Source of the DNA: a virus
DNA length: 64,000 nucleotides
Reading direction: 5' to 3' (one strand)
Virus record (IMG/VR): IMGVR_UViG_3300045988_112441
In this document: in pieces, positions 8,410 to 54,275 of the stretch
Layout: the number at the start of each line of letters is the position of its first letter
How positions within the stretch are numbered: the stretch's first letter is position 1
The notes under the pieces: generated by a model
Told to the model about the DNA's origin: nothing
What the model saw: the letters and a program-made list of their open reading frames with translations, nothing else
The model's database searches: none
Position numbers and translations under genes: made by a program

Positions 8410-8789
8410 TTAACGCCCTCCATTTTTGCCCCACAGTAGGGACAATACTTAAAAGGCTTGTATTTCTCAGAGCCGATACAAGGTGTCTCGCGCGGATAGA
8501 AAAAATCTTCGTAAAACTGTTCGTTGCAATTAGAACAATGATATACAGAGTCTTCTTCGTCATCGCACGGCCAGTGATCCCAGTGTGCAATAGCACGAAC
8601 TGTATTAGATTCTGCTTTCGGAAGCCCTAATAGGTCTTCGCGTTCTTCTGCTAGGAAATCGGAATAGTCATCTCGTTCGTCATAAAAGCGCATGTGCTTC
8701 AAGCCACTGTCAATTTCGTCTAGTAAAGGAGTGATATCCGCCCATTGAGCGTTTTCAGGAATATATTTCGCCATCTTGAACCACCTCAA
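8406..8789 (-). CDS. Hypothetical protein with a C-terminal zinc ribbon
   Basis: CSNCNE...CPYCG. Confidence 0.4.
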   Translation of the reverse strand: MRWFKMAKYIPENAQWADITPLLDEIDSGLKHMRFYDERDDYSDFLAEEREDLLGLPKAESNTVRAIAHWDHWPCDDEEDSVYHCSNCNEQFYEDFFYPRETPCIGSEKYKPFKYCPYCGAKMEGVK

Positions 8790-8974
8790 TGCTTAAACGT
8801 CTGTAATGCTGCAAACACGACAATGGCAACGTTCACAACTCCACAAAAGAACTTCTGTGCTCTTTCGTCATCAAAACTTGCCTTGGACACTTCAACGATA
8901 AGCTGCTCACATCGGATGCAACAGCCCATCATAATTAGAGTTGCTAAGACAGCAATCGTAAAATCAATCCACAT
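8786..8974 (-). CDS. Small hydrophobic membrane protein
   Basis: 62 aa, mostly hydrophobic. Confidence 0.35.
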   Translation of the reverse strand: MWIDFTIAVLATLIMMGCCIRCEQLIVEVSKASFDDERAQKFFCGVVNVAIVVFAALQTFKH

Positions 8975-9272
8975 CGATTAGCACCTCCTCGATAGGAATA
9001 ATCTGACCATCAACGTAGTAGCACATCTGACCGTGCTCATTATAATAAGGAGACATATAGCCGTAGCCTGCGTAGCCTGCACCTTTTCCGAACAAATAAT
9101 ACATGATGTGTGTATCCTTGTCGTACACCATAGGAGTGTCACCGATACGATAGAACCAGCCATTCGCTACAGTTACATTCCCTACCGAGTCTTTCATCCT
9201 TGTACTGCATCCAGTCAGTATAATCGCTGCTAGAAGTACGCATACGGCAGTATTTTTGAAAATTTTAAACAT
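8964..9272 (-). CDS. Putative lipoprotein
   Basis: Signal peptide plus lipobox (LLAAIILTGCS) from an internal Met, with a GAAAGGAAAGG RBS. Confidence 0.45.
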   Translation of the reverse strand: MFKIFKNTAVCVLLAAIILTGCSTRMKDSVGNVTVANGWFYRIGDTPMVYDKDTHIMYYLFGKGAGYAGYGYMSPYYNEHGQMCYYVDGQIIPIEEVLIDVD

Positions 9273-9379
9273 ACCTTTCCTTTCTGTTAAAAGCGGAATT
9301 CTATTAAAAATCGCCAAAAACTTATTGCGATAACACGTTGATTAAATTTAACTAAAATCAGGATTGTTTTCATCCCCTG

Positions 9380-9709
9380 TCACATGCATCGCCAATAATC
9401 AGGCTTGCCGATAACATCGCAATTTAAATCGTACCATTGAGTGTTCCAGCCCATAAAACCAATTTCTGATGGTCCATCATTACCGTATCTGATGTAGACA
9501 TTATCAGAACAAAGTTTATTATTTACCACTGGTTCTCTATCTTTTACTCGAATCCACCGTGGATCATAATCAACTTCCTTATAGGATGAAATCTCGATGC
9601 TATGATAACAATTGGAAAGTTCCATACGAACATCATCTTCAATGGACTTAATATTTTCTTTATCGATATCATCAACTAAAAGTTCAATGGTCACTTTCCT
9701 CACGTTCAT
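9380..9709 (-). CDS. Hypothetical protein
   Basis: ORF track. Confidence 0.4.
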   Translation of the reverse strand: MNVRKVTIELLVDDIDKENIKSIEDDVRMELSNCYHSIEISSYKEVDYDPRWIRVKDREPVVNNKLCSDNVYIRYGNDGPSEIGFMGWNTQWYDLNCDVIGKPDYWRCM

Positions 9710-10022
9710 TCTCCTTTAAATACCGCCATGCATCAGGCACTTTTAAATAATCAAACACACCGTCCGGCATCCAATTTCCTTGCTTTGAATACCACACTCT
9801 AGTTTCTCGTTCTCCGTATTTTGCTATGACAGTGCTACAAGGCTTCGGAAGATTTATCGTCGGGACATTCCAGTCATCCAACTTAGTTTCCGGCCAGTCA
9901 ATTCGAGTGCCACACTGACCGCAATAACTATTTCGATTCCCATCTTCATTACAAAGATACTCGCCGCTGCCACAATACTGGCAAGCGATAATGCCTTCCT
10001 CTGCAAAAGGATTGTTAATCAT
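9684..10022 (-). CDS. Zinc-ribbon protein (trimmed to Met47)
   Basis: CQYCGSGEY...CGQCG. The trimmed start removes the overlap with 10015..10269. Confidence 0.35.
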   Translation of the reverse strand: MINNPFAEEGIIACQYCGSGEYLCNEDGNRNSYCGQCGTRIDWPETKLDDWNVPTINLPKPCSTVIAKYGERETRVWYSKQGNWMPDGVFDYLKVPDAWRYLKENEREESDH

Positions 10023-19381: not shown

Positions 19382-20695
19382 TTAGGCATAAGACACCTCG
19401 TTCTTGTCATCTCTAAATCTTACAAAGGTCGGGAATTGCAGGGACTCAGCGCCAGTTTTCTTGTCACAGCTGACCTCTTTGTATTTACACTCAACAATCT
19501 TGCCAATGTAGTCATCAGGATTCGCCCACACAGTAGCTCTCGTAGCGTCATCAAAGCCAGAGCCAATGCGTAGCTCATTACCCTTGTAGTCCACAACGAG
19601 AGCTCCCGTCGTGCCAGCCAGACGGTTCTGACCTTCCTCAATCGCGATGATTCGCAGGTCAACAGTATAAAAACGTTTTACTTTCAGGCATCCATTATGT
19701 CGTGCCCGGCGGTAAGGGACATCTCTGTTACAGACAAGTCCTTCCCAGTCATTTGCAACAGCATAATCAAGCCATTTAGCAATCTGTGAATGGTCGGTTC
19801 CTTCGTAGACCATCTCGACAACTTCAATGTTTTGAAGATTGTGCTGCTTGATTTTCTCTTTCAGCTCAAGAAGCCGCTGTTTACGAACTGAATACCGTTC
19901 AACACATTCGTCATTTTCAAACTGTCTCTGTAGAACCATATCGAAAATTACGAACTTGATGCAGCTCTTATCTGTAGAATCGCTGTTAATAATGCCTGTC
20001 CCAACAACGAAATTTTTGTTATCTGACAGACCATCGACATTCTTACGAATTAACTCTCCATCAAATACATAACCAAAATAGCCAGTATTTTTAATATCGT
20101 TGATAATGTGGTCAAGTCCAGTAAACTTTTGCGCCTGTCTGGAAATGAACTGACCATTGATAAAGGTGCCGCGCACTCCATTTAATTTGCGCGATACAAA
20201 AATCATTTCATCCCGCTTCAGTTTAACCTTGTCAATCGGATATCCCTGCTGTACCTCCCAGACAGGAACAATCTCTTCGCCGTACACCTTATTGATGGTA
20301 GCTGCCTCGACTCCGATCGGCAGGTTCTTAGTGAACAGTCGTTTCAGAAACTCTTCGTATTCAGGATTTTTATGTAAATAATTCTGGATTGTTGCGATGG
20401 ATGTATCAGAGCCTGTATTGTGACTAGCACCCATAATATAAAGGTATCCGCAGCTGAGATACTGAACATCGAAATCCGGCCTTGCGGTTACCTTCTTATT
20501 GATCTTTGCATTAGACAGGCCAGTAACAATTGCCGGGTCAAGCAGGAATCGGAAGAATGCCATTAACTCATCAGCTTCATCTCCAAAATCCTTACGTGCA
20601 TCCAGCAAAATGCGGGTCTTGTCCGTCTTTTTCTTTGCTTTCTGCAATGCCTTAACCATCGCATCAAGCTTACCTATGAGCTCTTTATCTGTCAT
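19382..20695 (-). CDS. lig: ATP-dependent DNA ligase
   Basis: 437 aa. Adenylation motif SRKLNGVRG (KxDG/KxNG), nucleotidyltransferase fold and OB-fold tail. Confidence 0.8.
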   Translation of the reverse strand: MTDKELIGKLDAMVKALQKAKKKTDKTRILLDARKDFGDEADELMAFFRFLLDPAIVTGLSNAKINKKVTARPDFDVQYLSCGYLYIMGASHNTGSDTSIATIQNYLHKNPEYEEFLKRLFTKNLPIGVEAATINKVYGEEIVPVWEVQQGYPIDKVKLKRDEMIFVSRKLNGVRGTFINGQFISRQAQKFTGLDHIINDIKNTGYFGYVFDGELIRKNVDGLSDNKNFVVGTGIINSDSTDKSCIKFVIFDMVLQRQFENDECVERYSVRKQRLLELKEKIKQHNLQNIEVVEMVYEGTDHSQIAKWLDYAVANDWEGLVCNRDVPYRRARHNGCLKVKRFYTVDLRIIAIEEGQNRLAGTTGALVVDYKGNELRIGSGFDDATRATVWANPDDYIGKIVECKYKEVSCDKKTGAESLQFPTFVRFRDDKNEVSYA

Positions 20696-20708: not shown

Positions 20709-20726
20709 GTATCCTGTGTTATATAG
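20709..20726 (-). promoter_or_regulatory. Conserved 18-bp element GTATCCTGTGTTATATAG, copy a, just upstream of the ligase RBS
   Basis: One of at least seven near-identical copies of GTATCCTGT(G/A)TTA(C/T)ATAG, each just 5' of the RBS of a minus-strand gene. Confidence 0.5.
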
Positions 20727-20727
20727 T

Positions 20728-20768
20728 TATAGCTAATAAAGAAAGGCTTGTCGTTACGAGCAAGCCTT
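20728..20768 (-). terminator. Hairpin AAGGCTTG-N10-CAAGCCTT with flanking T-rich tracts
   Basis: 8-bp perfect stem, followed on the minus strand by TCTTTATT. Lies between the helicase and ligase operons. Confidence 0.4.
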
Positions 20769-20777
20769 CTCTTTCTC

Positions 20778-20795
20778 GTATCCTGTGTTATGCAT
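20778..20795 (-). promoter_or_regulatory. Conserved 18-bp element, copy b (GTATCCTGTGTTATGCAT)
   Basis: Sequence identity with the other copies. Confidence 0.4.
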
Positions 20796-20839
20796 CTAAA
20801 GAGAGAATTTTAAGCCTACGGGATGGAGACTTTTTATAA

Positions 20840-20857
20840 CTATATTATACAGGATAC
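20840..20857 (+). promoter_or_regulatory. Conserved 18-bp element, inverted copy c (CTATATTATACAGGATAC)
   Basis: Reverse complement of the element. Confidence 0.35.
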
Positions 20858-38018: not shown

Positions 38019-38254
38019 TCCTTTTTGGCAAATTTACTCCAATCCATCTTGTGATGACAATCAGAACACTCACACTCGAACTTTTCCAGCTTCGTCACAC
38101 AAAACGGACAGAGATACGTGTTCTTATCCTTCTGGAAGATAGGACTTGCCGGAAGGCTCAAGGAGCCGTGATCGATAGTTACATTGATAGGAATTTTGCT
38201 GTTCATCATGTCACCTCTTGTTTGAATTAGCCTTTTATGAGATTTTCTTATCAA
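38015..38254 (-). CDS. Small zinc-ribbon protein
   Basis: CPFCVTKLEKFECECSDCHH. Confidence 0.4.
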   Translation of the reverse strand: MIRKSHKRLIQTRGDMMNSKIPINVTIDHGSLSLPASPIFQKDKNTYLCPFCVTKLEKFECECSDCHHKMDWSKFAKKE

Positions 38255-38727
38255 GTTTTCGTAACTCTAACTTACTGGGAAGAAAATTTCTACAGAAGTA
38301 TGCACTTCCAAAAGACACTCCCTCGACAGGGCTGTCTGCGTGTTTAGGGTCCATGAATCCTATTCGAGAATCAAAACACAGCATCTGTACATCATTTTTG
38401 AAGATGTCAAATCGTGTCTTACCCTGAATACTATTTGCAGGAAGTAGTAGAGCAAACGGCTTTTTAAGCTCATAGGCTCTACGCAATACTTCATCCTTCC
38501 TACTAAAAGGAGGGTTTGAAATCATAATATCCCAATATTCCGGTTCGTATGTAAAGAAATCTTGTCCGTTATCAATGTGGCTATATTCTACTTTATATCC
38601 AGCATTTCTGAACACCTGCACAAAGGCAGACCACTCTTTATCAAACGGACACCAAATCACTGTTTTACTCGACGGGGGGCAAATTCAAGCAATGGAATAA
38701 CCGCGTAAACCGGTGTGTATCGCTCAT
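38235..38727 (-). pseudogene. Phage Dam-like N6-adenine DNA methyltransferase interrupted by a +1 frameshift in a G6/C6 tract
   Basis: C-terminal part has the NPPF motif (IMISNPPFSRKD...LLLPANS). An ATG at 38727 encodes MSDTHRFTRLFHCLNLPP and runs into poly-G 38674-38679. Deleting one G yields a contiguous protein of about 160 aa with a WCPFD (DPF-like) motif. Confidence 0.5.
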
Positions 38728-38777: not shown

Positions 38778-40242
38778 TTATCCTCCTTGCTTTTCTGGAA
38801 AATGCTTCTTAGTTACTGCAACGCAGAACGGTTCAATTTCAGATCCCCAGATAGCAGTACCATCACCATACGTACTTTCAAAGACAAGCGGAAAGCCACC
38901 GATTCCATCAAAAAGACTGCCAAGCGTAGGATTCTCACCGATATACGGCTTCATTTTCTGGAAAATCCAATACCACTGAGGCAATGCAATCGAATTGCCG
39001 AGCGCCTTGTAACGAGGAGAATCAGCTGGTTTGTGCTTTTTACCATTCTCATCAACCCACTCGCCAATATCAGTCCATCCATCAGGGAACCCTTGAAGTC
39101 GTTCACACTCGACAGGAGTCAGGCGACGAACAATCCATTGCAGATTCTTCGTTTCCTTCTCTGCAATCAAGTCAGTAGCATCCTTGTAGTCACGAGATTT
39201 CATCGTACTAGCTTGTTCACTTTCCTTGTATTCACCAATGCGTTGCATTGCAAAGGTTTTCTTTTCAGCAACAAGCGGCATATTATTGCCACCAGTCCCC
39301 CATTGAGCCGTACAAGCCGGACTTGTGTCGCCCTGTTGAGTGTATCGAGCATCCTGACTGTGACTCTCAAACACCACCGGCGAAATCTTTTGTTTTGAAT
39401 TATGTAAAGAGGTGTTGTCTGCCAAGCAAATTAACGTTTGATCTTGCAATGTAGAAAGCGTTGCGCTCTTCTCGATTTGTACCAGTGCGCCTTTGCCACC
39501 ACCTTCGCATCCTGAACGAATCTTTAAAGTGTAGGCAACAGCATTACGGTCAATAGTGTTTATAGTGAAAGCAGTATCTTCTTTTACACCAGTCCCATTC
39601 ATGTTGGTTTCTCTGTCAATCATGTTTCCGACGATACAAAAGCTTTTTTCTCCCACCACTCGATCATTTCCAACAATGCATTTTTCAGCAATTCTGGCAG
39701 CACCTTGCCACGTCGGGATGCTCTCGTCAGAATTCCCTGGCACGCCCGTGCGCTCAAATAATATCTTTGCGGCACGTTGTCCTCCAAAATCCATGACAAG
39801 CGCGATTCTTTGACGACGTTGGGGCACTCCCCAGTATTGAGCATCGAAGAGTCTCCATGCCAAAGACCATCCATTACCGGAAATTGCGCCGGATTTAGAC
39901 CATTTTCCACCTTTTTCCGAAGGTTTAGGAATTGTAGCGTCTGCTTCGACGATGTGTGCAAATTCTTCCAAGACACATCGGAAGTCTTCTCCGTTGTTTG
40001 AGGAGAGTGCTCCTCTAACATTTTCCCAGATTGCAAATTTTGGATATTCTCCATTGGTGGTATCCCTCATTTCTTTTATCACACGAATCATTTCCATAAA
40101 TAGACCAGACCGTTCTCCAGCCAAACCTGCCCGCTTACCGGCAATAGAAAGATCTTGGCTAACAAGGTGAACCACCAGTGATACACGAGACAGGTTCAAT
40201 CTTAGAACCATCAATCTCGCAAATACTTCCATAATGTTTCAC
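38778..40242 (-). CDS. C5-cytosine DNA methyltransferase-like gene, motif order IV-X then I-II, disrupted at the catalytic Pro-Cys codon
   Basis: Motifs in order: ENV (VI), QRRQR (VIII), TRD, RLTPVECERLQGFP (IX), GNSIALP (X), then LFDGIGGF (I) and SEIEPFCVAVTKKHFP (II) at the C-terminus. The GGSPC part of motif IV lies in an upstream frame (GTG at 40242 with a GGAGG RBS). A 4-nt TTAG insertion at 40159-40162 ends that frame with TAG. The ATG at 40232 then gives a protein that reads VSQDLS where motif IV should read PCQDLS. Confidence 0.65.
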
Positions 40243-40259: not shown

Positions 40260-40277
40260 GTATCCTGTGTTACATAG
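40260..40277 (-). promoter_or_regulatory. Conserved 18-bp element, copy e (GTATCCTGTGTTACATAG)
   Basis: Just upstream of the GAAAAGGAGGTGG RBS of the C5-methyltransferase gene. Confidence 0.5.
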
Positions 40278-40383
40278 CTAAATCTCAGAGAATAAGCGAA
40301 AAACAATAGACGTATCAACGTCATATTATTTCAACGCTTATAAAACAAAAGTTCTAGCGGGTTTTATGTACGCCCTTTCGGGC

Positions 40384-40464
40384 TGGTGGGACATGTCGGA
40401 CTTGAACCGTGATACATATGCTCAGTTATGAGCTGAGTTCTCTAACCAATTGAGATAATGTCCC
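40384..40464 (-). tRNA. tRNA-Met/Ile2 (anticodon CAT), atypical
   Basis: Perfect acceptor (GGGACAT/ATGTCCC), D-arm and anticodon arm (CTCAG-CTCATAA-CTGAG), and an encoded CCA. The variable region is about 9 nt and the T-stem has only 3 bp (mismatches at 49:65 and 50:64). Confidence 0.45.
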
Positions 40465-40653
40465 ATAAAAACCAGTTAAATAGCTGCAACTATTCAACTG
40501 GGCACCTTCCTTATAAAACACTATTGCATCTATATCATATAGACGAGGAAGGAATAACAGCGATGCACATTTCCTATATCTCGCCCCTTTCGGGGTGGTA
40601 TCTCGCACAGGCGCGGCCGGATCTGACCGCCAAAGATCCTACCCATACGAGAT

Positions 40654-40728
40654 TGGAGCAGCGAAAGGTAGTCGAAACCTCATCCTCAGCTTGGAAGGCT
40701 GATGTACTAGCCGTTGTACGACCGCCGC
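40654..40728 (-). tRNA. tRNA-Gly (anticodon TCC) with a G3:U70 pair
   Basis: Full cloverleaf: acceptor GCGGCGG/TCGCTGC with G3:U70 and G7:U66, D-arm GTAC-AACGGCTA-GTAC, anticodon loop CTTCCAA, T-arm GAGGT-TTCGACT-ACCTT, U73 and CCA. Confidence 0.6.
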
Positions 40729-40831
40729 ATGAAAACCCAGCTTACAAAACACTACTGCACCATCACTGGCGAGCTGGGAATAATAGTGGTCAAAGGATAT
40801 CAACAAACGGTACGCAACCATTCTATGACCG

Positions 40832-40916
40832 TGGTGCCACAGGCGAGACTCAAACTCGCAAGCCTTTCGGCGTCTACCCCTAAAATAGATGTGTAGGTCA
40901 ATTCCACCACTGTGGC
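40832..40916 (-). tRNA. tRNA-Leu (anticodon TAG), class II
   Basis: 85 nt. Acceptor GCCACAG/CTGTGGC, anticodon stem TCTAT/GTAGA, loop TTTAGGG, variable arm CGCCGAAAGGCTT, T-arm GCGAG-TTTGAGT-CTCGC, A73 and CCA. Confidence 0.65.
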
Positions 40917-40923
40917 ATATAAA

Positions 40924-40997
40924 TTGCGCCGGAAAGAATCGAACTTTCGCAATCGGGACTTCAAAGGACCCTGCCTTAACCGCTTGGCTACGACGCA
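40924..40997 (-). tRNA. tRNA-Gln (anticodon TTG)
   Basis: Acceptor TGCGTCG/CGGCGCA, Gln-like D-arm GCCAAGCGGTTAAGGC, anticodon loop CTTTGAA with a U:U mismatch in the stem, T-arm GAAAG-TTCGATT-CTTTC. No encoded CCA. Confidence 0.6.
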
Positions 40998-41093
40998 TTA
41001 TATACTTGGCTTGCTGTGTCCTATTGCTCCATTTTTGGAGAGCCAAGAATAATAGGAAAGGTATTTTATGAAAAGCATGTTGGGAAACCAACT

Positions 41094-41166
41094 GGTCGAA
41101 AACGTCAGATTTGAACTGCAACTCCTGCTCCCAAAGCAGGCGTGTTACCATTACACCACGTTCTCG
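41094..41166 (-). tRNA. tRNA-Pro (anticodon TGG), atypical
   Basis: C1:G72 acceptor (CGAGAAC/GTTTTCG), A73 and CCA. Anticodon arm CCTGC-TTTGGGA-GCAGG. One extra nucleotide at positions 8-9, and a weak T-stem. Confidence 0.5.
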
Positions 41167-41169
41167 ATA

Positions 41170-41257
41170 TGGTGCCGCAGGTGGGATTCAAACCCACGAT
41201 CCATATTTCAGGCGTCCCGGTTTAAGCGGGAAATGTATGTCACTCCATCACTGCGGC
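41170..41257 (-). tRNA. tRNA-Leu (anticodon TAA), class II-like
   Basis: 88 nt. Acceptor GCCGCAG/CTGCGGC, anticodon stem TCCCG/CGGGA, loop CTTAAAC, 17-nt variable region, T-arm GTGGG-TTTGAAT-CCCAC, A73 and CCA. Confidence 0.5.
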
Positions 41258-41301: not shown

Positions 41302-42198
41302 TTAATTTTCCTCTTTACTGTTCATATCTAATTTTCTGTATGGTAAATCATAATACTTGCACCATTTACGTATGGCATTTCCTGATACTCCATATTTTCT
41401 TCCAACATCTTGAAAGGACATTGAAGCTGTGTCTACCATCAATTGTTCTTTATCAGGAAAATCAATGCGTTTACTGTAAGGATTTCCTTTTAAACAATTT
41501 TTACAGAGACATCCTTTTGCACGCGGACTCATTTCTTTTCCGCATATTGAACAATATTTGATTTTTCTTCTTTTTCTTTCTTTTTTCTCACGGATAACCT
41601 TTTCACGTGGAATTTGAGTTACGTTGTTTTCAATCATTAGTTGCCTTGCTTTGTCATACCACACTCTCGCAGAATAATAAATTCCAACTTTTTCAAGAGC
41701 GGCATTTATAGTTGATGTTGTTTTTAACGCATCAAGAAAATCTTTATCGCTCACAGTCTTGTATTTCCCGATATTATTTTTGCACCAATTATCAGTTTGT
41801 GCATGACAATTCGGGCAAAGCAACTGAAGATTGTCTAATTCATTATTTATGTGGTTTCCGTCAATATGATGTACTTGCAATGGAATCTGTTTGCCCATCT
41901 ATTCAGAGTTTCCACAACATTCACACTTATATGGTTTGATAGAAAGAAGTGCGGATTTTAAATCCTTTATTCGTCTTCCATTTTTAAAACGAGACAAATC
42001 CACGTTCCCTTTATTCTAGCCCTGCCCAGTGAAATGAGAAGTATTTATATTGTGCGCTTTTGCATAATCTTGAAGTACGTGATTCGTACTTCCACCATTT
42101 TTTGAATATCCAAGCTTCTCCGCAACCGCAGCCTAACTTTTGCTTTCCTCAAAAGCTTGCTCAATTTCTTCTTTTGTAAGTTTATCAATCTTTTTCAT
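41302..42198 (-). CDS. HNH homing endonuclease as one continuous 299-codon frame with three in-frame TAG codons
   Basis: GGAGG RBS before the ATG at 42198. Frame reads MKKIDKLTKEEIEQAFEESKS-TAG-38 aa (KLGYSKNGGSTNHVLQDYAKAHNI...)-TAG-38 aa (...KPYKCECCGNSE)-TAG-MGKQIPLQVHHIDGNHINNELDNLQLLCPNCH... TAGs at 42133-35, 42016-18 and 41899-901. No other stops or frameshifts; ORF-track coordinates confirm they share one frame. Confidence 0.7.
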
Positions 42199-42390
42199 AA
42201 AATGCCTCCAACATCTAATAAATGAATATTCGGACTCTGGTGCCAAGGACGGTATTCGAAACCGCATGTGTTTCCACAGCGAGGTTTGGGCTCGCCCTGT
42301 CTCCCATTTGCAGCACCTTGGCATATATTGCCGGTCTTTCCCGGCTGTCAGCCCCGCTCAGGGCATTTTCGGAGGAAGAAAATGTCTTAA

Positions 42391-43059
42391 TTACTCATTA
42401 CCAAGCGTATCAGCGATATCCTTGAAGTCATTCCACTTGATTTTGACAATTACTCGATTACCTCTGCGGTCTTTCAACTCAACCTTTGGACGACCAACCA
42501 GACCTTCCATATAAATGTCATCAATCGAAACCGTAGACTTCGGATGTTGACACACAAACTTGATACCGTCTCGAATCGTCCCTGTAAACAAAATAGGAAC
42601 TACTTGGATACCAAACATCTGAGCAGTCTTTTCAACCCACTCTCTACTCTGGTAGTTATCACCAACCAGGGCATCGAACAAGATGAACCACTCATCAGGT
42701 CGGTATCCATGACCACATCCTTGAATTTTGCCACCATAACCCTCTCCAAAGAGGATTACTTCTTTATCACCGTAAGTCTGTTCAAACAATTCCTCTGCTT
42801 CAGAAGTACCGAAAATTTCATTTAGTGCATCCACCAAATTCTTAGGAAGTTCGGCACGTTCAGTTCGTCCGGCAAAGCTGACTTTATGACCGTCCCAGCA
42901 AACACGCACATTCGTGCCATCCACTTTCTCAGTAAATTCCCACTCATTATTTTGTAGGAACTCAATGGTTTCATTACGAAAATCACCGATAATCAGCTTT
43001 TTAGTGCCTTCGATATCACGATTAAACACCGTTTCGATTTTTTCGTAGGTTTTCATCAA
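42391..43059 (-). CDS. RNA ligase (ATP-dependent nucleotidyltransferase, Rnl-like)
   Basis: 222 aa. Lys-adenylation motif TEKVDGTNVRV. Size and fold resemble small phage/bacterial RNA ligases. Confidence 0.6.
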   Translation of the reverse strand: MMKTYEKIETVFNRDIEGTKKLIIGDFRNETIEFLQNNEWEFTEKVDGTNVRVCWDGHKVSFAGRTERAELPKNLVDALNEIFGTSEAEELFEQTYGDKEVILFGEGYGGKIQGCGHGYRPDEWFILFDALVGDNYQSREWVEKTAQMFGIQVVPILFTGTIRDGIKFVCQHPKSTVSIDDIYMEGLVGRPKVELKDRRGNRVIVKIKWNDFKDIADTLGNE

Positions 43060-43132
43060 AAATCACCTCAAAATTCTAACGTATTTTCGTTAATTATTTT
43101 AACGAAAATCACGATAAAATGTCTATTTTAAT

Positions 43133-45345
43133 TCAGCTCTTCTGCTGACTTGCGTAGAACTCATTCCGCAGCTGAATAATACCCTTTTTGCAGAAAGATT
43201 CCTGGTCTTTCTCTCGTTGTTCACGCATCCAACCATAAAACAGGTTATCCTCAGCAGTAAATAACTTTGCGGTATTTTCATAATAGCCACGTTTCTGAAC
43301 GCTCTGCATGACACCACGCAAGAACTTCCAGTGCTTATAATAAGGAAGCTTCATCTTAAACATGAAATTGTTGCTGTCTCGCAAAACAAAGCCTTCAACG
43401 TGTTCAAAGCCATGATGCAGATAGTTCTCGTTCATGACTTCCTCGTACCAAGGATAGAATTCACTCCAGTTCTCAAAGGTCTTAACCTTCTCCTTAATCT
43501 GCAGATGACACTTCTCAGCTACACGCTTCAGATCATCGTAATCCATCACACTGAAGTTCATATCATTCGCAACAATATCCAGCAAAACAATATGCGGTTT
43601 CTTATATTCAATGATATGAGCATCATTCACAGGATCAATCACCTCGAAGATGATAGAACCATTCTCTTTTGCAACTTCTTTCAGATTCTTACGGTCTTCA
43701 TCAGAAGTCGTATCCATGAGAATCTTTCGGAACATATCTGCAAAAGGCCCTTCAGGAGTGGATTTACTTGCAATGAACAGACCATCCTGTTCTGCATCAT
43801 ACGAAATGATACCAAGAAATCCATTCTCTTTTAAATATGCAGTCACCGGGAACTTCAAAGTGTTCTGTAGGTTTCCAATTCTCGTTTCATTCCGCTCATC
43901 AACCGCAAAGAATTTATCATAGCTTCGAGCTACAATCTTATTCGTCTTTGTGTTAATGAACAATCCCCTTGCTTTGGTAGAAACCTCATCCCAATGCTTC
44001 TTATAAAATGCTTCACGAGAGAAGTTGAAAGAAGAAATATCTCCGAATCGCTTCTCAAACACATATTTGCTTTGACGCATCTTACCAACAAGTTCTGCGT
44101 TATCGAACTCAGTTTTCATTTCAACGGCAGTTTCAGTCTTTGGCTCCTCTTTTCGGAACACATCGTTCTTGGTTTCTACACACTTGATTGACTGACCGTG
44201 TTCAAGTTCCACGCAACGAAGATATCCGCCAAACTCGATTTTTCCTTCGAGGTTGTAGCACCGATGCCCCATATCAATAGGAACATCCTGCACATTCCGA
44301 TGACCGAAGATCTGAATGTAGCTATCCGGCATCGATTTTTCCCAAGACTCAGCCACGGTTAGCATATCAGGATAGCGACCTACACCTTTAATCATCTGAT
44401 CAGCAGATACAAAAGGAAGAAAATAAGGCAGATAGCTCAGGCCACCATGACTTACAAAATACCGCTTACCATCATACTCAAAGTAGGCACACTGGCCGAC
44501 TCTGGAATAGATCTTACGAGCAGTGTTCTTGTCAATACCGGCTTTAAAGAGCTGCGGACGAGTGTAGTTTGCAAACTCTTCACTCTGAACCGGTTCATCA
44601 TGCCCCACTTGTTCAGACAACGCTCGTGATTCCCTTCCAAAAGGATCACATTCTTGCGGTTGTTATTTACAACATCACACAAGAACTTGAATACTTCAAC
44701 GTTTTCGATGCCACGATCGAGATAATCACCAACGAAGATATAAAGTTCGTCGTCCTTCATCTCACCAAGGTATTCACTTAAACAAGTATAGCAGCCATGA
44801 ATATCACCGATGACATGAACCTTCTTCCACTGGTTGAAGTCATTCGGATAGTAGTTCAAATCGGACATCACATCCGTAGTAGAAGGAAGAACCGTCACGC
44901 CAGAAGGAACTTTTTGAGTAGCAAACCGAGCGTACATCTTATCAATGGCCGCTTCAGGAACTCGCTTCAGCCATTCTCTCTGAGCGTTTCTTCGTTTGCA
45001 TTCCTCGATCGGAAGATCCGTCATGTCAATAACATACATCCGATAACGATACTGTTTTGCAAGATTCTTATAACGATTCATTTCGACCGTCTTGGAATTC
45101 GTTGCATCAATCACGGTAAACTCACCATGACTCATACGCACCTCAAGCAGTTTGAAAAGCATCTCCCATACAACATCATCATTCTGCGGAGAAATCTCCA
45201 TCTGCCCGGCAGGTGTTTCCTGTGCGCTCTGGCACATAAGGCGAAGTGTATCAGCACTCAATACGTACTGCTCAAGATTATGCTCTTTAATATAGGTGGA
45301 CTTCCCACAACCTGGTGCTCCACGGAACAGCAAAAGCGTTCTCAT
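43133..45345 (-). CDS. Pnkp-like polynucleotide kinase/metallophosphatase/ligase-like adenylyltransferase, encoded in two overlapping frames
   Basis: ORF 44452..45345 has a P-loop kinase (FRGAPGCGKST) plus GDIHG/GDYLDRG/GNHE. ORF 43133..44620, in the -1 frame, continues with FVSHGG, GHRN and a KENGF ligase-like motif. The 169-nt overlap contains T_TTA_AAG in phase (44542-44548) and a G4 run. Confidence 0.6.
44542..44548 (-). promoter_or_regulatory. Candidate -1 ribosomal frameshift heptamer T_TTA_AAG inside the Pnkp overlap
   Basis: In the zero frame of the upstream ORF (tct tta aag). A -1 slip enters the downstream frame (ttt aaa gcc...). Confidence 0.3.
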
Positions 45346-45366
45346 CTACATTTCCCTTTCTAATAA

Positions 45367-45384
45367 GTATCCTGTGTTACATAG
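45367..45384 (-). promoter_or_regulatory. Conserved 18-bp element, copy f (GTATCCTGTGTTACATAG)
   Basis: 21 nt upstream of the Pnkp ATG. Confidence 0.5.
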
Positions 45385-45390
45385 TTACAA

Positions 45391-45417
45391 TGTTAAAATC
45401 AAGGGGCAGAAGCCCCC
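45391..45417. terminator. GC-rich hairpin GGGGC-AGAA-GCCCC with T-tracts on both sides (bidirectional terminator)
   Basis: Downstream of gene 45423..46349 and upstream of element f. Same terminator-then-element layout as between helicase and ligase. Confidence 0.5.
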
Positions 45418-45422
45418 TGTTT

Positions 45423-46349
45423 TTAATTTTTGTGGAAGTATTCGACCCAGCCCTTGTATCCTTGTCGAAAACTGATATACGCAACCTTGCTGCACTTTCT
45501 TCCGATAATGTCCGCAAGAGGATATTTACCATTTCCGAAACTAAGTTCTGCAAGATTAAATTCTGGATGAGTTTTACAGTAGTTATAAACCTTGACATAC
45601 TCGCCGTTTCTGGTCAGATGTCTTCGGTCTAAAGCCTTTGAATGATATCTTCTTTCGAGAATATCATTCAAGCGCGTGAAATAACTATGAATCGTATTCG
45701 TAGACATTTTTGAATCACTGTCTGCACCAGTTCTATCCTCTGTTTTGCGAAGAATGTAATCACCATTTATGACATAAAACGTTCTGTATCCTCCCATATT
45801 TGGAGCATCGTATTGTTTCATTTCATAACACTGCTTAATGATATTCATCAATCTCGCGTCAACACCGGTCTTATTCAGAACAGTACATGATTCAAAATCA
45901 ACATCGTTAATTGTCAGATTAGAAACCTCTTCGGAAGTAAGACCAATCCAGTACAGCACGGCAATCACGTTCATACGAATCTGATATGGTTCTTCATACT
46001 TGTCCAAGAAATCAACAAACTCATCAGCTGACGCAAAATACTTGTCCTCGTACATATTGTCTGAACTCACGTCGCTCTCCGAGAATTCAGCTAAGTCATA
46101 CATGCTCGCTCGATACTCACTTTTGATGTAACCTGTAATTATTGACTTTACATTTCTGAACGACCGACTTGAATTCACCCAATTGTATTTGGCAAACATC
46201 TTTACAAAATCATCTTTTGTGAAGTCAAACAACTCATACCCACGCTCGGCCTCGTAATCCATAACATGGTTAAGTGTCGATACAACAAACTCACCGCTTC
46301 TATCAGAATACTTTTCGGCAAAAGCTTTGATTTTTTCTTCAGTAAGCAT
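45423..46349 (-). CDS. Hypothetical protein (possible divergent tyrosine-recombinase-like fold)
   Basis: 308 aa. LTSEEVSNLTINDVDF and HSYFTRL...RRH...Y segments resemble recombinase boxes, but only weakly. Confidence 0.3.
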   Translation of the reverse strand: MLTEEKIKAFAEKYSDRSGEFVVSTLNHVMDYEAERGYELFDFTKDDFVKMFAKYNWVNSSRSFRNVKSIITGYIKSEYRASMYDLAEFSESDVSSDNMYEDKYFASADEFVDFLDKYEEPYQIRMNVIAVLYWIGLTSEEVSNLTINDVDFESCTVLNKTGVDARLMNIIKQCYEMKQYDAPNMGGYRTFYVINGDYILRKTEDRTGADSDSKMSTNTIHSYFTRLNDILERRYHSKALDRRHLTRNGEYVKVYNYCKTHPEFNLAELSFGNGKYPLADIIGRKCSKVAYISFRQGYKGWVEYFHKN

Positions 46350-46402
46350 AGTGGCACACTCCTTCTTATTATATGTAGTGTACCATTAAACCTTATAAAA
46401 AA

Positions 46403-46822
46403 TCAAGCAAATGCGGCAAAATTCTGAAATTCCATAGTATGTTGTACGCCGCTCAGGAATGCTGCGAGCAAAAACGGCTCATCCTTACATCTTGCCATTG
46501 CAATCATATTCATTTGACGCTCCGACAAGACACCAAGTTTCTTAATGAACTGTCCTTTGTTAAGTGTATCAGTCTCTTCACAGAGAACGATACTGTCAAC
46601 CTCTAGGAAATCACAATCTTCCTTTGCGAGTAAAACATGAACCGGAGAGCGCTTGTATATTCTGGAAGACAACGGATTTCCTTTAATTGTGGGACTAAAG
46701 AAGTTGCGCTTATTGTTGCTCGTCACAACGAACGGTCGAATACCGCGCTGCTGATGACCTGTCGCATTGGACAAATCGACCAACCAAACCTCTCCGACCT
46801 TTGGGTCAGTATTGTTGTCCAT
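46403..46822 (-). CDS. MazF/PemK-family endoribonuclease toxin-like protein
   Basis: 139 aa. GEVWLVDLSNATGHQQRGIRPFVVTSNN...PLSS...HVLL...VDSIVLCEE matches the PemK/MazF fold signature. No MazE-like antitoxin ORF adjacent. Confidence 0.6.
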   Translation of the reverse strand: MDNNTDPKVGEVWLVDLSNATGHQQRGIRPFVVTSNNKRNFFSPTIKGNPLSSRIYKRSPVHVLLAKEDCDFLEVDSIVLCEETDTLNKGQFIKKLGVLSERQMNMIAMARCKDEPFLLAAFLSGVQHTMEFQNFAAFA

Positions 46823-46840
46823 AGTTTTTTCTCCTCTACA

Positions 46841-46880
46841 ATAATGTAGCTCCGTTCCATAGCTACATTATACAGGATAC
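46841..46880. promoter_or_regulatory. Palindrome ATAATGTAGCT-N9-AGCTACATTAT overlapping inverted element copy g (CTACATTATACAGGATAC, 46863-46880)
   Basis: 11-bp inverted repeat upstream of the MazF-like gene; operator-like. Confidence 0.4.
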
Positions 46881-46914
46881 AACCACAGAAGTCAAGAGGT
46901 TTTTGAAAATATTT

Positions 46915-47271
46915 TTAGTGCCCGTACAACTCAGGATTCTCTGATACGAACACACTGGTATCATCGAAGATCATCTCATACGCTTTCTCTTTATCGCCCG
47001 GCCTAAGCTCTATCCTCCTTACTTCGTGGCACTCCTGCCGCAGCTCAATGTGACTTTCGTTTCCCAAAAATCCAATGCCTTTGACAATTCCATGCGTCTC
47101 TATACCAATGTCGTCCATCTTTTTGCAGATCATGTGAACATCCACACCATTGCAAATAAAACAGACCCACACTCGCTTTTTTCTTATGTACTTCAAAAAG
47201 TTCTCAACCTGTATAACTCCCAAAACCTTTTTCTCACTCATCGAAATACCGCCTTCCGCTCGCATAAACAA
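46915..47271 (-). CDS. Hypothetical protein
   Basis: ORF track. Confidence 0.4.
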   Translation of the reverse strand: MFMRAEGGISMSEKKVLGVIQVENFLKYIRKKRVWVCFICNGVDVHMICKKMDDIGIETHGIVKGIGFLGNESHIELRQECHEVRRIELRPGDKEKAYEMIFDDTSVFVSENPELYGH

Positions 47272-53435: not shown

Positions 53436-54275
53436 TCAGTCTTCCAAGCTGTGTGTATTCACACCATAAAAAGTCTTCTTATAATATTCTTTTGCCTTAT
53501 CCTCATCAAAACCAACGTACCGTAATGTAATATCCTGACTACTATGATTCAACTGACCCTGAATCCAAGACAATGCCTGGTTATCATCCTTATTAAGACA
53601 CATCTCACGATAACCAAATGTCTTACGGCAAGAATGAGATGCAATCTTATAATTAAGACCCAAATCTTTGCCAGCGTTACGAAGAATACGAGCAAAAGAA
53701 TCAACATCAATAGGATCACCGGCCTTTTTGGGTTCTGCAATATGAGGAATACCAGTTTTCCCATCTCCACCATTTGTCCTCAACGACTTTTTCCAGCTCC
53801 CCTGCCGAGACGGAAACATCCAATCGTCATATCCAAGTTTCGCAATCTTAATATATGTTTCAACAATATCCCTCGCTTCTGGAGTAAGGATGATTTCTCG
53901 ATACTTGGACGTTTTTTCTTCAACGATACACACTCCAGCGTCTTCAACCACTTCAATTTTTCCATTATAAAGGCAATAAGACATATCGGAAACTTTCAAT
54001 TTGAGTAAATCACTAGCACGTAACCCGGTTGCGATACCTACGTTAAATAGACACCAATTGCGATATTGCTTTTTATCCCAGAAGTATTCCGAAATCATTT
54101 GAACATCATCCAAGCTTCTAATTGGAGAAATATTACGCTTACGCTTCTGCTTACTTCTTGTAACACCACGTTTTTTAGCCGGAACAGAAGGTTTCGGATT
54201 AAAATAAATCAATTTAGGTATCTGTTCTTCTTTTCTTTCAACAACTGCGCTCATTATATTCACCTCAAACTCCAT
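53436..54275 (-). CDS. Tyrosine recombinase/integrase (second copy)
   Basis: GLRASDLLKLKVSDM, HSCRKTFG, LNHSS...TLRYV (R..H-x-x-R..Y). Confidence 0.75.
   Translation of the reverse strand: MEFEVNIMSAVVERKEEQIPKLIYFNPKPSVPAKKRGVTRSKQKRKRNISPIRSLDDVQMISEYFWDKKQYRNWCLFNVGIATGLRASDLLKLKVSDMSYCLYNGKIEVVEDAGVCIVEEKTSKYREIILTPEARDIVETYIKIAKLGYDDWMFPSRQGSWKKSLRTNGGDGKTGIPHIAEPKKAGDPIDVDSFARILRNAGKDLGLNYKIASHSCRKTFGYREMCLNKDDNQALSWIQGQLNHSSQDITLRYVGFDEDKAKEYYKKTFYGVNTHSLED

Follow-up and report, generated by a model that had tools for sequence, protein, structure and literature searches.

When a phage gene for an endoribonuclease lies beside genes for enzymes that mend cleaved RNA, do these genes form one system? 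The question is raised by a locus in a 64,000-nt stretch of viral DNA, IMG/VR record IMGVR_UViG_3300045988_112441 (hereafter the window), where an initial annotation made from the sequence alone had placed an RNA ligase, a Pnkp-like RNA repair enzyme and a MazF-like RNase (positions 42391 to 46822) next to a cluster of tRNA genes. Two interpretations had been put forward, a tRNA-repair counter-defense combined with phage-encoded replacement tRNAs, and a self-contained module that both cleaves and repairs RNA. We consider it probable that the locus, part of the early region of a temperate SPbeta-like phage that infects gut Firmicutes, comprises two adjacent transcription units, not one module: one with the MazF-like gene and a gene for a predicted repressor homolog, the other with the repair genes and the tRNAs.

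Genes were assigned by Pfam, PHROG and NCBIfam profiles, PDB matches and AlphaFold2 (AF2) models compared using Foldseek, promoter and terminator positions were taken from scans of the window sequence, and tRNAs were called with ARAGORN and Rfam. The set of close relatives consists of about 160 loci, 80 fetched through the Pnkp-like gene and about 82 through the MazF-like gene. Every gene between 40 and 48.7 kb of the window is on the minus strand, the order of transcription being a 108-aa open reading frame (ORF), the MazF-like gene, a 308-aa gene, the Pnkp-like gene, a 222-aa ligase gene, tRNA-Leu(CAA), an HNH gene, six tRNA genes and a C5-methyltransferase gene. Each of the three RNA genes named initially exists and passes profile searches, but four genes are present, as the 308-aa repressor homolog had been overlooked. 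Neither are they immediately upstream of the six tRNAs, which are indeed there, since a seventh tRNA and the HNH gene intervene after the ligase gene. The features of the first unit and the ORF preceding it are as follows.

46915-47241, minus strand: 108-aa ORF, directly upstream of the MazF-like gene
46863-46895, minus strand: MazF/repressor promoter (TTGACT at 46895-46890, 17-nt spacer, TATAAT at 46872-46867; scan score 11/12)
46403-46822, minus strand: MazF/PemK-like endoribonuclease, 139 aa (PF02452, phrog_1936, PDB)
45423-46349, minus strand: predicted SroF/YopR/MrpR-type repressor homolog, 308 aa (profile, AF2, Foldseek)
45402-45418, minus strand: intrinsic terminator after the repressor gene (GGGGGC-loop-GCCCC, then a T run)

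A MazF-like RNase gene and its integrase-fold neighbor

The assignment of the 139-aa protein as a MazF/PemK-like endoribonuclease was borne out by matches to PF02452 (3.7e-19, 69.4 bits vs 23.1) and, in the PDB, to S. aureus MazF (5.5e-14) and B. subtilis EndoA (1e-10). Arg25 and Thr48 are the catalytic residues of B. subtilis MazF. The catalytic Arg, R29 here, does not vary among 25 homologs, nor do G27 and P30, and every homolog has Ser or Thr where Thr48 aligns. In its PemK fold and these positions the protein resembles MazF of the S. aureus and B. subtilis MazEF systems, from which the locus differs in lacking a MazE-like gene, in being part of a phage repressor operon and in encoding an additional C-terminal segment of ~30 aa (residues 110-139, 46403-46495; ARxxDEPFLxxAFLxGVQxTxxFxxF). 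This conserved extension, with many invariant residues, is missing from canonical MazF and could be an interaction or autoinhibitory segment.

The initial description of this MazF as having no adjacent antitoxin also holds, as profiles and fold comparison revealed no recognizable MazE-like gene on either side. The RNase might be neutralized by a host MazE, by its own conserved C-terminal extension or by the repressor. The 108-aa ORF, which has a sigma70-like promoter of its own (47311-47284), is one of a narrow family whose members are all 108 aa long and 75-91% identical, and has no Pfam, PHROG or NCBIfam match. Its AF2 model (predicted local distance difference test score, pLDDT, 77) has a beta-rich fold for which the best PDB matches, to ChuX/HutX, are weak (E at least 0.03). 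We considered this ORF as a MazE-like antitoxin or a Sar-like antirepressor and rejected both, there being no profile match and no MazE or Sar fold. No GAAC-N4-GTTC (LexA-type) box was found near it, and the ORFs at this position in distant lineages are not homologous to it.

For the 308-aa protein, matches of the single sequence were weak (MrpR_N_CB, 3.6e-4; phrog_5830, labeled 'integrase'). A profile built from 36 homologs matched YopR (8bj6, 1.8e-14) and MrpR (8a0a, 6.4e-14) in the PDB over the full length, and 28 of the 36 family members match PF22822 MrpR_N_CB. With the AF2 model (pLDDT 88.5), the best Foldseek match was Phi3T SroF bound to DNA (9rd5, 8.7e-9), followed by SroF-Sar, YopR and MrpR, and the top seven were all SroF, YopR or MrpR chains, ahead of true recombinases. 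Sequence profile and predicted structure thus make the protein an integrase-fold homolog of SroF/YopR/MrpR, the master repressor of SPbeta-family phages. The known repressors of this type have the integrase fold without recombinase activity (PMC10516654; bioRxiv 10.1101/2025.11.27.690993). In the 36-member alignment no Arg or His column is invariant or near-invariant (>=90%), while Tyr298 is near-invariant.

Because the flanks of related loci carry SPbeta markers (YorF, YorH and YunG-like), the window has integrase and replication genes and the relatives are phage contigs, we take the window to be part of a temperate SPbeta-like phage. The window encodes an integrase, Pol III alpha, RecD2, RecJ, NrdD and DNA ligase, and the related contigs, of about 125-140 kb, come from human gut samples. 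Two tyrosine-recombinase genes were noted in the window, one of the Tn916 integrase type at the left end (225-1391) and a shorter one of the Phage_integrase family (53436-54275, minus strand); the shorter type is also found a few kb upstream of MazF in the distant relatives L089 and L090.

The MazF-like gene directly precedes the gene for the repressor homolog in six lineages, and profile searches confirmed a repressor homolog downstream of PemK in all six. What follows the pair is variable (percentages are identities to the window proteins).

Window clade, about 160 loci: MazF 94-99%; then mostly the Pnkp-ligase fusion, with a 690-aa protein in about a quarter of the MazF-sampled loci
L081-83: MazF 70%, repressor 30%; then the Pnkp-ligase fusion, 53% identical
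L089: MazF 62%; no Pnkp
L090: MazF 65%; kinase-phosphatase without the ligase domain
L091: MazF 61%; no Pnkp
L084, Flintibacter muris prophage: PemK in two ORFs; Pnkp-ligase fusion after three genes, 2.65 kb beyond the repressor homolog

Among the close relatives fetched through MazF, 61 have Pnkp and about 21 of 82 do not, and Pnkp is absent or cut to a kinase-phosphatase in three of the five more distant lineages; in L090, a 408-aa kinase-metallophosphatase protein (8587-9813) fills the Pnkp slot. In the close relatives without Pnkp, the slot is filled by the 690-aa protein (phrog_1735) and a 127-aa protein (phrog_2018), as at L134:7487-9957, L092:7486-9956 and L125:7487-11094. The 690-aa protein had no Pfam, NCBIfam or PDB sequence match. 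The small RNA ligase normally accompanies these two genes, likewise in MT835544.1, and the set may be an alternative counter-defense cassette. Pnkp is thus facultative at the locus, and the gene with which MazF is conserved is that of the repressor, not that of the repair enzyme. In the prophage of F. muris GCA_943192995.1 (L084:3981-5349), PemK is split into ORFs of 84 and 46 aa next to an intact repressor homolog, which suggests that MazF can decay without loss of the repressor.

The arrangement of regulatory sequences separates the pair from the genes that follow. An 18-nt element, GTATCCTGTRTWAYRTAG, occurs in seven copies in the window (0.02 expected), all intergenic, two of them inverted and most a few nt upstream of the Shine-Dalgarno sequence of minus-strand genes (Pnkp, methyltransferase, DNA ligase and a gene near 35.98 kb). 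Three copies, two direct and one inverted, lie at 20709-20857 in the 170-bp intergenic region upstream of the DNA ligase gene. In the MazF/repressor promoter, an inverted copy at 46863-46880 (GTATCCTGTATAATGTAG) overlaps both spacer and -10 box, with the core GTATCCTGT in all of the most frequent promoter variants among close relatives, and the copy upstream of Pnkp is kept in most close relatives. The terminator after the repressor gene is likewise present in close relatives, with changes mostly in the loop.

In SPbeta, MrpR binds the repeated SPBRE in promoter regions, with ten peaks detected by chromatin affinity precipitation sequencing (ChAP-seq), including one at the aimR promoter (PMC10516654), and the repressor SroF, a monomer with an integrase fold, recognizes a long asymmetric box (bioRxiv 10.1101/2025.11.27.690993). 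Since the element of the window occurs in both orientations and overlaps a core promoter, it fits an operator, a putative SPBRE analog, and we infer from this resemblance that it may be the operator of the repressor homolog.

The element had been described as bracketing the module together with terminators. The element itself is real, but the copies do not bracket the genes, because one copy and a terminator lie inside, in the gap between repressor and Pnkp, and another copy lies over the MazF promoter. With a promoter before MazF and a terminator after the repressor gene, MazF and the repressor would instead be one unit, and Pnkp, the ligase and the tRNAs the next. We also noted an inverted repeat, GTAGCT-ATGGAACGG-AGCTAC, in the MazF 5´ leader (46826-46862) downstream of the -10 box and ahead of the Shine-Dalgarno sequence; the most frequent promoter variants of close relatives all have it unchanged.

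The kinase-phosphatase-ligase gene and its surroundings

The features downstream of the terminator are the following.

45367-45384, plus strand: element copy GTATCCTGTGTTACATAG, 22 nt upstream of the Pnkp start codon
43133-45345, minus strand: Pnkp-like RNA repair gene, 737 aa once repaired (Pfam, phrog_8238, PDB)
44452-45345 and 43133-44620, minus strand: the two overlapping Pnkp ORFs as they stand in the window
42381-43086, minus strand: insertion carrying the 222-aa minimal RNA ligase (PF09414; coding sequence 42391-43059)
42238-42322, minus strand: tRNA-Leu(CAA) (ARAGORN)
41302-41898, minus strand: HNH homing-type endonuclease gene (Pfam HNH, phrog_10822)
40384-41257, minus strand: six-tRNA array, Leu-TAA, Pro-TGG, Gln-TTG, Leu-TAG, Gly-TCC and Met-CAT (ARAGORN)
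40309-40322, minus strand: terminator-like hairpin after the tRNA array (terminator scan)
40260-40277, plus strand: element copy directly upstream of the methyltransferase Shine-Dalgarno sequence and start
38778-40232, minus strand: C5-methyltransferase gene, start at 40232

All of the motifs previously reported for the kinase, the binuclear metallophosphatase and the KENGF ligase-like domain of the Pnkp-like protein were found, and Pfam AAA_33, Metallophos and RNA_lig_T4_1 match. The kinase part has a P-loop (GAPGCGKS, residues 9-16) and matches AAA_33 (4.4e-24) and the CthPnkp kinase (PDB 4gp7, 5.8e-6). The metallophosphatase motifs GDIHG, GDYLDRG, GNHE, HGG and GHRN are all present, but a frameshift distributes them over two ORFs. 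The ligase part matches RNA_lig_T4_1 (PF09511; 2.5e-41, 142.4 bits vs threshold 28.3), and LKENGF (with Lys506 in the repaired numbering), FEVID, EGFVLR and FKMK align with motifs I (KxNG), III, IV (EGFVxR) and V (FKxK) of Trl1.

The 'Clostridium-Pnkp architecture' suggested for this protein stands for the kinase-phosphatase half and fails for the ligase. As in Clostridium thermocellum Pnkp, the order is kinase, metallophosphatase, ligase, and the kinase and phosphatase halves are homologous. TIGR04075, however, covers only residues 4-303, with 79.6 bits against an equivalog cutoff of 750, and leaves the ligase half unmatched; the ligase is of the Rnl1/Trl1 (Rnl6)-like PF09511 type, not Rnl4. 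A search for a Hen1-like methyltransferase, the partner in the Pnkp/Hen1 system of C. thermocellum, had been proposed. None was found among about 37 ORFs scanned, all within the window, and the neighbors of Pnkp are the repressor homolog and the RNA ligase. No Hen1 is expected, because the ligase is not of the Rnl4 type.

Within the PDB, the ligase half matched fungal Trl1 ligase domains best (2.7e-18 to about 1e-9). The Trl1 alignment (residues 432-731) reaches the C-terminus and extends into the C-terminal helical domain, with 'IIxLRNxF' also aligned, whereas the match to T4 Rnl1 (about 2e-6) is limited to the nucleotidyltransferase core. In the best Trl1 alignment, Lys occupies the positions of Trl1 Arg334 and Arg337, which are the proposed 2'-phosphate contacts (PMC6379707, also the source of the Trl1 domain definitions). 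Fungal and plant Trl1 (Rnl6) is organized differently, as LIG-KIN-CPD, and its 2H cyclic phosphodiesterase leaves the 2'-phosphate in place.

The two Pnkp ORFs map onto a single family of 737 positions, phrog_8238. The frame changes at a run of G residues at 44603-44606 (minus strand), where the window reads TGGGGCAT, with G4, a 1-nt deletion from G5. All 74 relatives with a readable junction are in frame (TGGGGGCAT or TGGGGNCAT, that is, GGGGG or GGGGN), and with one G added the gene encodes 737 aa, its product sharing 98% identity with an intact 737-aa homolog in the database. This is the sole indel in the MazF, repressor or Pnkp coding sequences on comparison with five Pnkp-carrying relatives. 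The cause is either a miscounted homopolymer in sequencing or a mutation that inactivated the gene recently. A programmed frameshift was rejected, given the single frame of the 74 relatives and a site without a slippery heptamer.

Fusions of this kind are widespread. More than 4,500 database proteins match the kinase-phosphatase-ligase arrangement, many of them about 50% identical over the full length, and it is found in 130 GenBank phage records, among them those of Bacillus Spbetavirus (44% identity) and Twort-like staphylococcal phages (38%), under the labels 'RNA ligase', 'polynucleotide kinase' or 'tRNA ligase'. The fusion is common in large Firmicutes phages of the Twort-like and Bacillus SPbeta-like types. 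These phrog_8238 genes share all three domains with the window protein, with 38-44% identity over the full length, and differ in being known by annotation only. No biochemical characterization of the phage family was found in paper searches. The fusion is widespread in phages, jumbo-phage-like ones included, that show no MazF nearby in the contexts examined; in Bacillus phage Goe11, too, the fusion gene is 2.6 kb downstream of the gene at the YopR position with no MazF seen near. On the 213-kb phage-like contig L086 (8001-11280, 18121-18226), we observed a fusion homolog directly followed by an RlaP nucleotidyltransferase gene, with Thg1-like and adenylosuccinate synthase genes near, in a larger RNA-repair cluster.

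The 222-aa ligase is, as initially annotated, an Rnl-type RNA ligase with the KxDG lysine. It matches PF09414 RNA_ligase (1.4e-15, 58.3 bits vs 27) and has the motifs KVDG (residues 45-48), EGLV and KIK. Against phrog_548 it covers positions 2-235 of 341, stopping after the nucleotidyltransferase domain, and the NCBIfam matches, to Rnl2 and DraRnl, are weak and far under the cutoffs (TIGR02307, 8.9e-7, 28.7 bits vs 197). With the nucleotidyltransferase domain alone, and without the Rnl2 C-terminal domain, it is a minimal ligase of the Rnl2/Rnl5 superfamily. The alternatives of a DNA ligase or a capping enzyme were discarded, with no such Pfam family at E<=0.01; a separate ATP-dependent DNA ligase gene is at 19382-20695.

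Relative to L009 and L022, which have 12 bp at this position, the ligase gene is a clean 705-bp single-gene insertion. It is present in five of the about 160 related loci, all five without Pnkp, and in none of the 80 loci fetched through Pnkp. Window positions 43142-41804 are 99.1% identical to the Pnkp-less L125, from which we conclude that recombination shaped this genome and that Pnkp and the ligase happen to have come together in it. In the only GenBank phage record with similar DNA, the ligase has AAA/STAND ATPase and NAD-salvage genes as neighbors but neither Pnkp nor a tRNA close by.

Five of the six tRNAs in the array were confirmed by Rfam, and the array is kept in relatives with 79-92% nucleotide identity. 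The ARAGORN calls for tRNA-Leu(TAG) (40832-40916) and tRNA-Leu(CAA) (42238-42322) are absent from Rfam at the gathering threshold, and the latter is several indels apart from its L009 counterpart. The presence of the HNH gene varies, with copies 99-100% identical in L009, L022, L125 and L128; about eight other relatives have HNH genes there that are more diverged (26-57%). Beyond the array, the motif order in the C5 cytosine methyltransferase ORF is unusual, as a motif IV-like sequence, ENV, QRRQR and the target recognition domain (TRD)/GNS come first while FDGIGG (motif I) and EIEP are at the C-terminus; this ORF is either circularly permuted or two genes fused. A short ORF with an NPPF motif follows at 38235-38660.

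Readings of the locus

In the two-unit reading that we consider probable, unit A (46895 to 45402) would be transcribed from a near-consensus host-type promoter through the genes for the MazF-like RNase and the repressor homolog to the terminator, and the repressor would autoregulate this unit and silence, in the lysogen, the early genes that the element marks. Unit B (45384 to 40309) would encode a single-polypeptide RNA healing and sealing enzyme, the minimal ligase, the homing endonuclease and the seven tRNAs. The kinase would phosphorylate the 5'-OH end, the lambda-phosphatase-type binuclear metallophosphatase would remove the 2',3'-cyclic or 3'-phosphate and the Rnl1/Trl1-type ligase would seal the break through Lys506-AMP.

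T4 Pnkp and Rnl1 repair tRNA cut by the host anticodon nuclease PrrC. By homology to that pair, unit B may repair or replace tRNAs and other RNAs cut by host ribonuclease defenses in lytic growth, with its tRNA genes supplying replacements. Like T4, this phage encodes a 5'-kinase and a 3'-phosphatase together with an ATP-dependent ligase of the Rnl1 type (PF09511), and has tRNA genes near them. Unlike in T4, the three activities here are fused in 737 aa, the phosphatase is a binuclear metallophosphatase in place of the DxDxT (HAD) type, the ligase is nearer to fungal Trl1 than to T4 Rnl1 and the gene is frameshifted. A repair-and-replacement unit is plausible because of the intact motifs, the co-orientation of the genes, the element upstream of Pnkp and the terminator after the tRNA array. 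The first of the two initial interpretations therefore remains plausible for Pnkp, the ligase and the tRNAs, with the reservations that the enzyme is frameshifted and the small ligase is a rare insertion.

For MazF, a role in lysogeny control or prophage-borne exclusion seems most likely by analogy with host MazF in Bacillus arbitrium phages; the phage-borne protein could act in promoting lysogeny, or in prophage retention or exclusion. In phi3T, host MazF promotes lysogeny, in these Bacillus relatives phage proteins bind MazF or MazE (PMC10769878), and MazF is reported to spare the sro operon mRNA (bioRxiv 10.1101/2025.11.27.690993). The locus resembles the SPbeta/phi3T module in its integrase-fold repressor, in a short element repeated in promoter regions including the repressor's own, in belonging to a temperate phage of about 125-140 kb with SPbeta marker genes and in the tie between MazF and the lysis-lysogeny decision in Bacillus phages (PMC10516654, PMC10769878). 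It differs in that MazF is phage-encoded and directly upstream of the repressor gene, in that neither the six-gene sro operon nor arbitrium genes were recognized in the window and in the sequence of the 18-nt element, which is unrelated to the phi3T box.

Several observations weigh against the two-unit reading. The element could possibly be part of a phage-specific promoter, as its AT-rich half resembles a -10 box, and its variable half showed no clean covariation with the repressor alleles. The timing of expression is something that we infer, and the element is connected with the repressor by analogy with SPbeta. No arbitrium AimR-like gene or LexA box was recognized in the parts and ORFs of the window scanned, in a search that was not exhaustive, and the analogy to Bacillus phages may therefore be incomplete. 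In the MazF/repressor mRNA, UACAU (the B. subtilis-type site) is not depleted, nor is any 4-6-mer significantly depleted across five lineages when multiple testing is allowed for; given no such site avoidance, a role of MazF in lysogeny remains an analogy. Since the enzyme is frameshifted in the window sequence, unit B may not work in this genome. Finally, Pnkp follows MazF and the repressor in most close relatives and one distant clade, and a functional link is possible.

Such a link is the essence of the second initial interpretation. Spelled out, the Pnkp-ligase fusion, aided by the small ligase, would reseal RNAs cut by MazF, as a phage-controlled reversible switch with MazF active in one state and repair on entry to lytic growth. 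The ends of MazF products match the substrates of the kinase, phosphatase and ligase. The MazF-repressor-Pnkp order is kept in about 75% of close relatives and in L081-83, L090 retains a kinase-phosphatase in the same place, and an operator role of the element would mean opposite states of expression for MazF and Pnkp. In E. coli, RtcB reverses MazF cleavage of 16S rRNA (PMC5416887). We nevertheless think this interpretation improbable, as MazF goes with the repressor, the two genes have separate promoters with a terminator and an element before Pnkp, and L089, L091 and about 21 close relatives keep the pair without having Pnkp. Conversely, the fusion is common in phages with no MazF seen nearby, the small ligase is found in few loci and there without Pnkp, and in the window it is Pnkp that is frameshifted while MazF is intact.

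It is also unlikely that MazF and the integrase-fold repressor constitute a toxin-antitoxin-like pair in reverse order, in which the repressor neutralizes MazF and its loss results in addiction or abortive infection. The strict adjacency and likely co-transcription in six lineages, the operator-like element over a shared promoter and the fact that no other antitoxin candidate was detected would fit such a pair, as would the typical nature of type II antitoxins, which are autorepressing DNA-binding proteins. The two proteins have evolved at different rates, though, which is unusual for tight partners: MazF of L081 shares 70% identity with the window protein and the L081 repressor 30%, and among close relatives the repressor alleles are 74-98% identical compared with 94-99% for MazF. 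In addition, SroF homologs of Bacillus phages work without a phage MazF, and in the Flintibacter prophage the repressor homolog is intact beside the split PemK.

A broader scheme, for which we see only a small chance, would have gut SPbeta-like phages taking in the MazF arm of an arbitrium-type circuit. By analogy, MazF would bias the phage to lysogeny or retention, possibly neutralized by the co-transcribed repressor, and the Pnkp-ligase/tRNA operon, turned on at derepression, would reseal or replace RNAs cut by MazF or host RNases and so restore translation for lytic growth. Very unlikely, finally, is a stand-alone MazF, serving as a defense or host-takeover RNase that is neutralized by host MazE or its own C-terminal extension and merely co-located with the repressor and repair genes: the family does carry the PHROG moron label 'MazF-like growth inhibitor', many Lachnospiraceae, Blautia and Coprococcus phage records contain an annotated solitary MazF-like gene and the extension is conserved with invariant residues, but the invariant place just upstream of the repressor across diverged lineages points to a link with the repression module.

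Meaning for SPbeta-like gut phages

The RNA-repair part of the locus is an ordinary phage counter-defense gene set, with an enzyme of a known, annotated kind. Nothing that we found in prokaryotes or viruses is nearer to the fungal tRNA ligase domain than the family of this enzyme, which is widespread and uncharacterized, and a single purified protein would clarify the activities of thousands of genes now labeled 'RNA ligase' or 'AAA ATPase'. Of greater interest is that, in abundant phages of the human gut, a MazF carried by the phage itself is strictly paired with an SroF/MrpR-type repressor, an arrangement that, as far as literature searches reached, is an undescribed variant of the SPbeta-type repression module. 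The 18-nt element offers a candidate operator map for these phages, and a phage with its own MazF in the repressor operon makes the idea that MazF participates in the lysis-lysogeny decision directly testable outside Bacillus.

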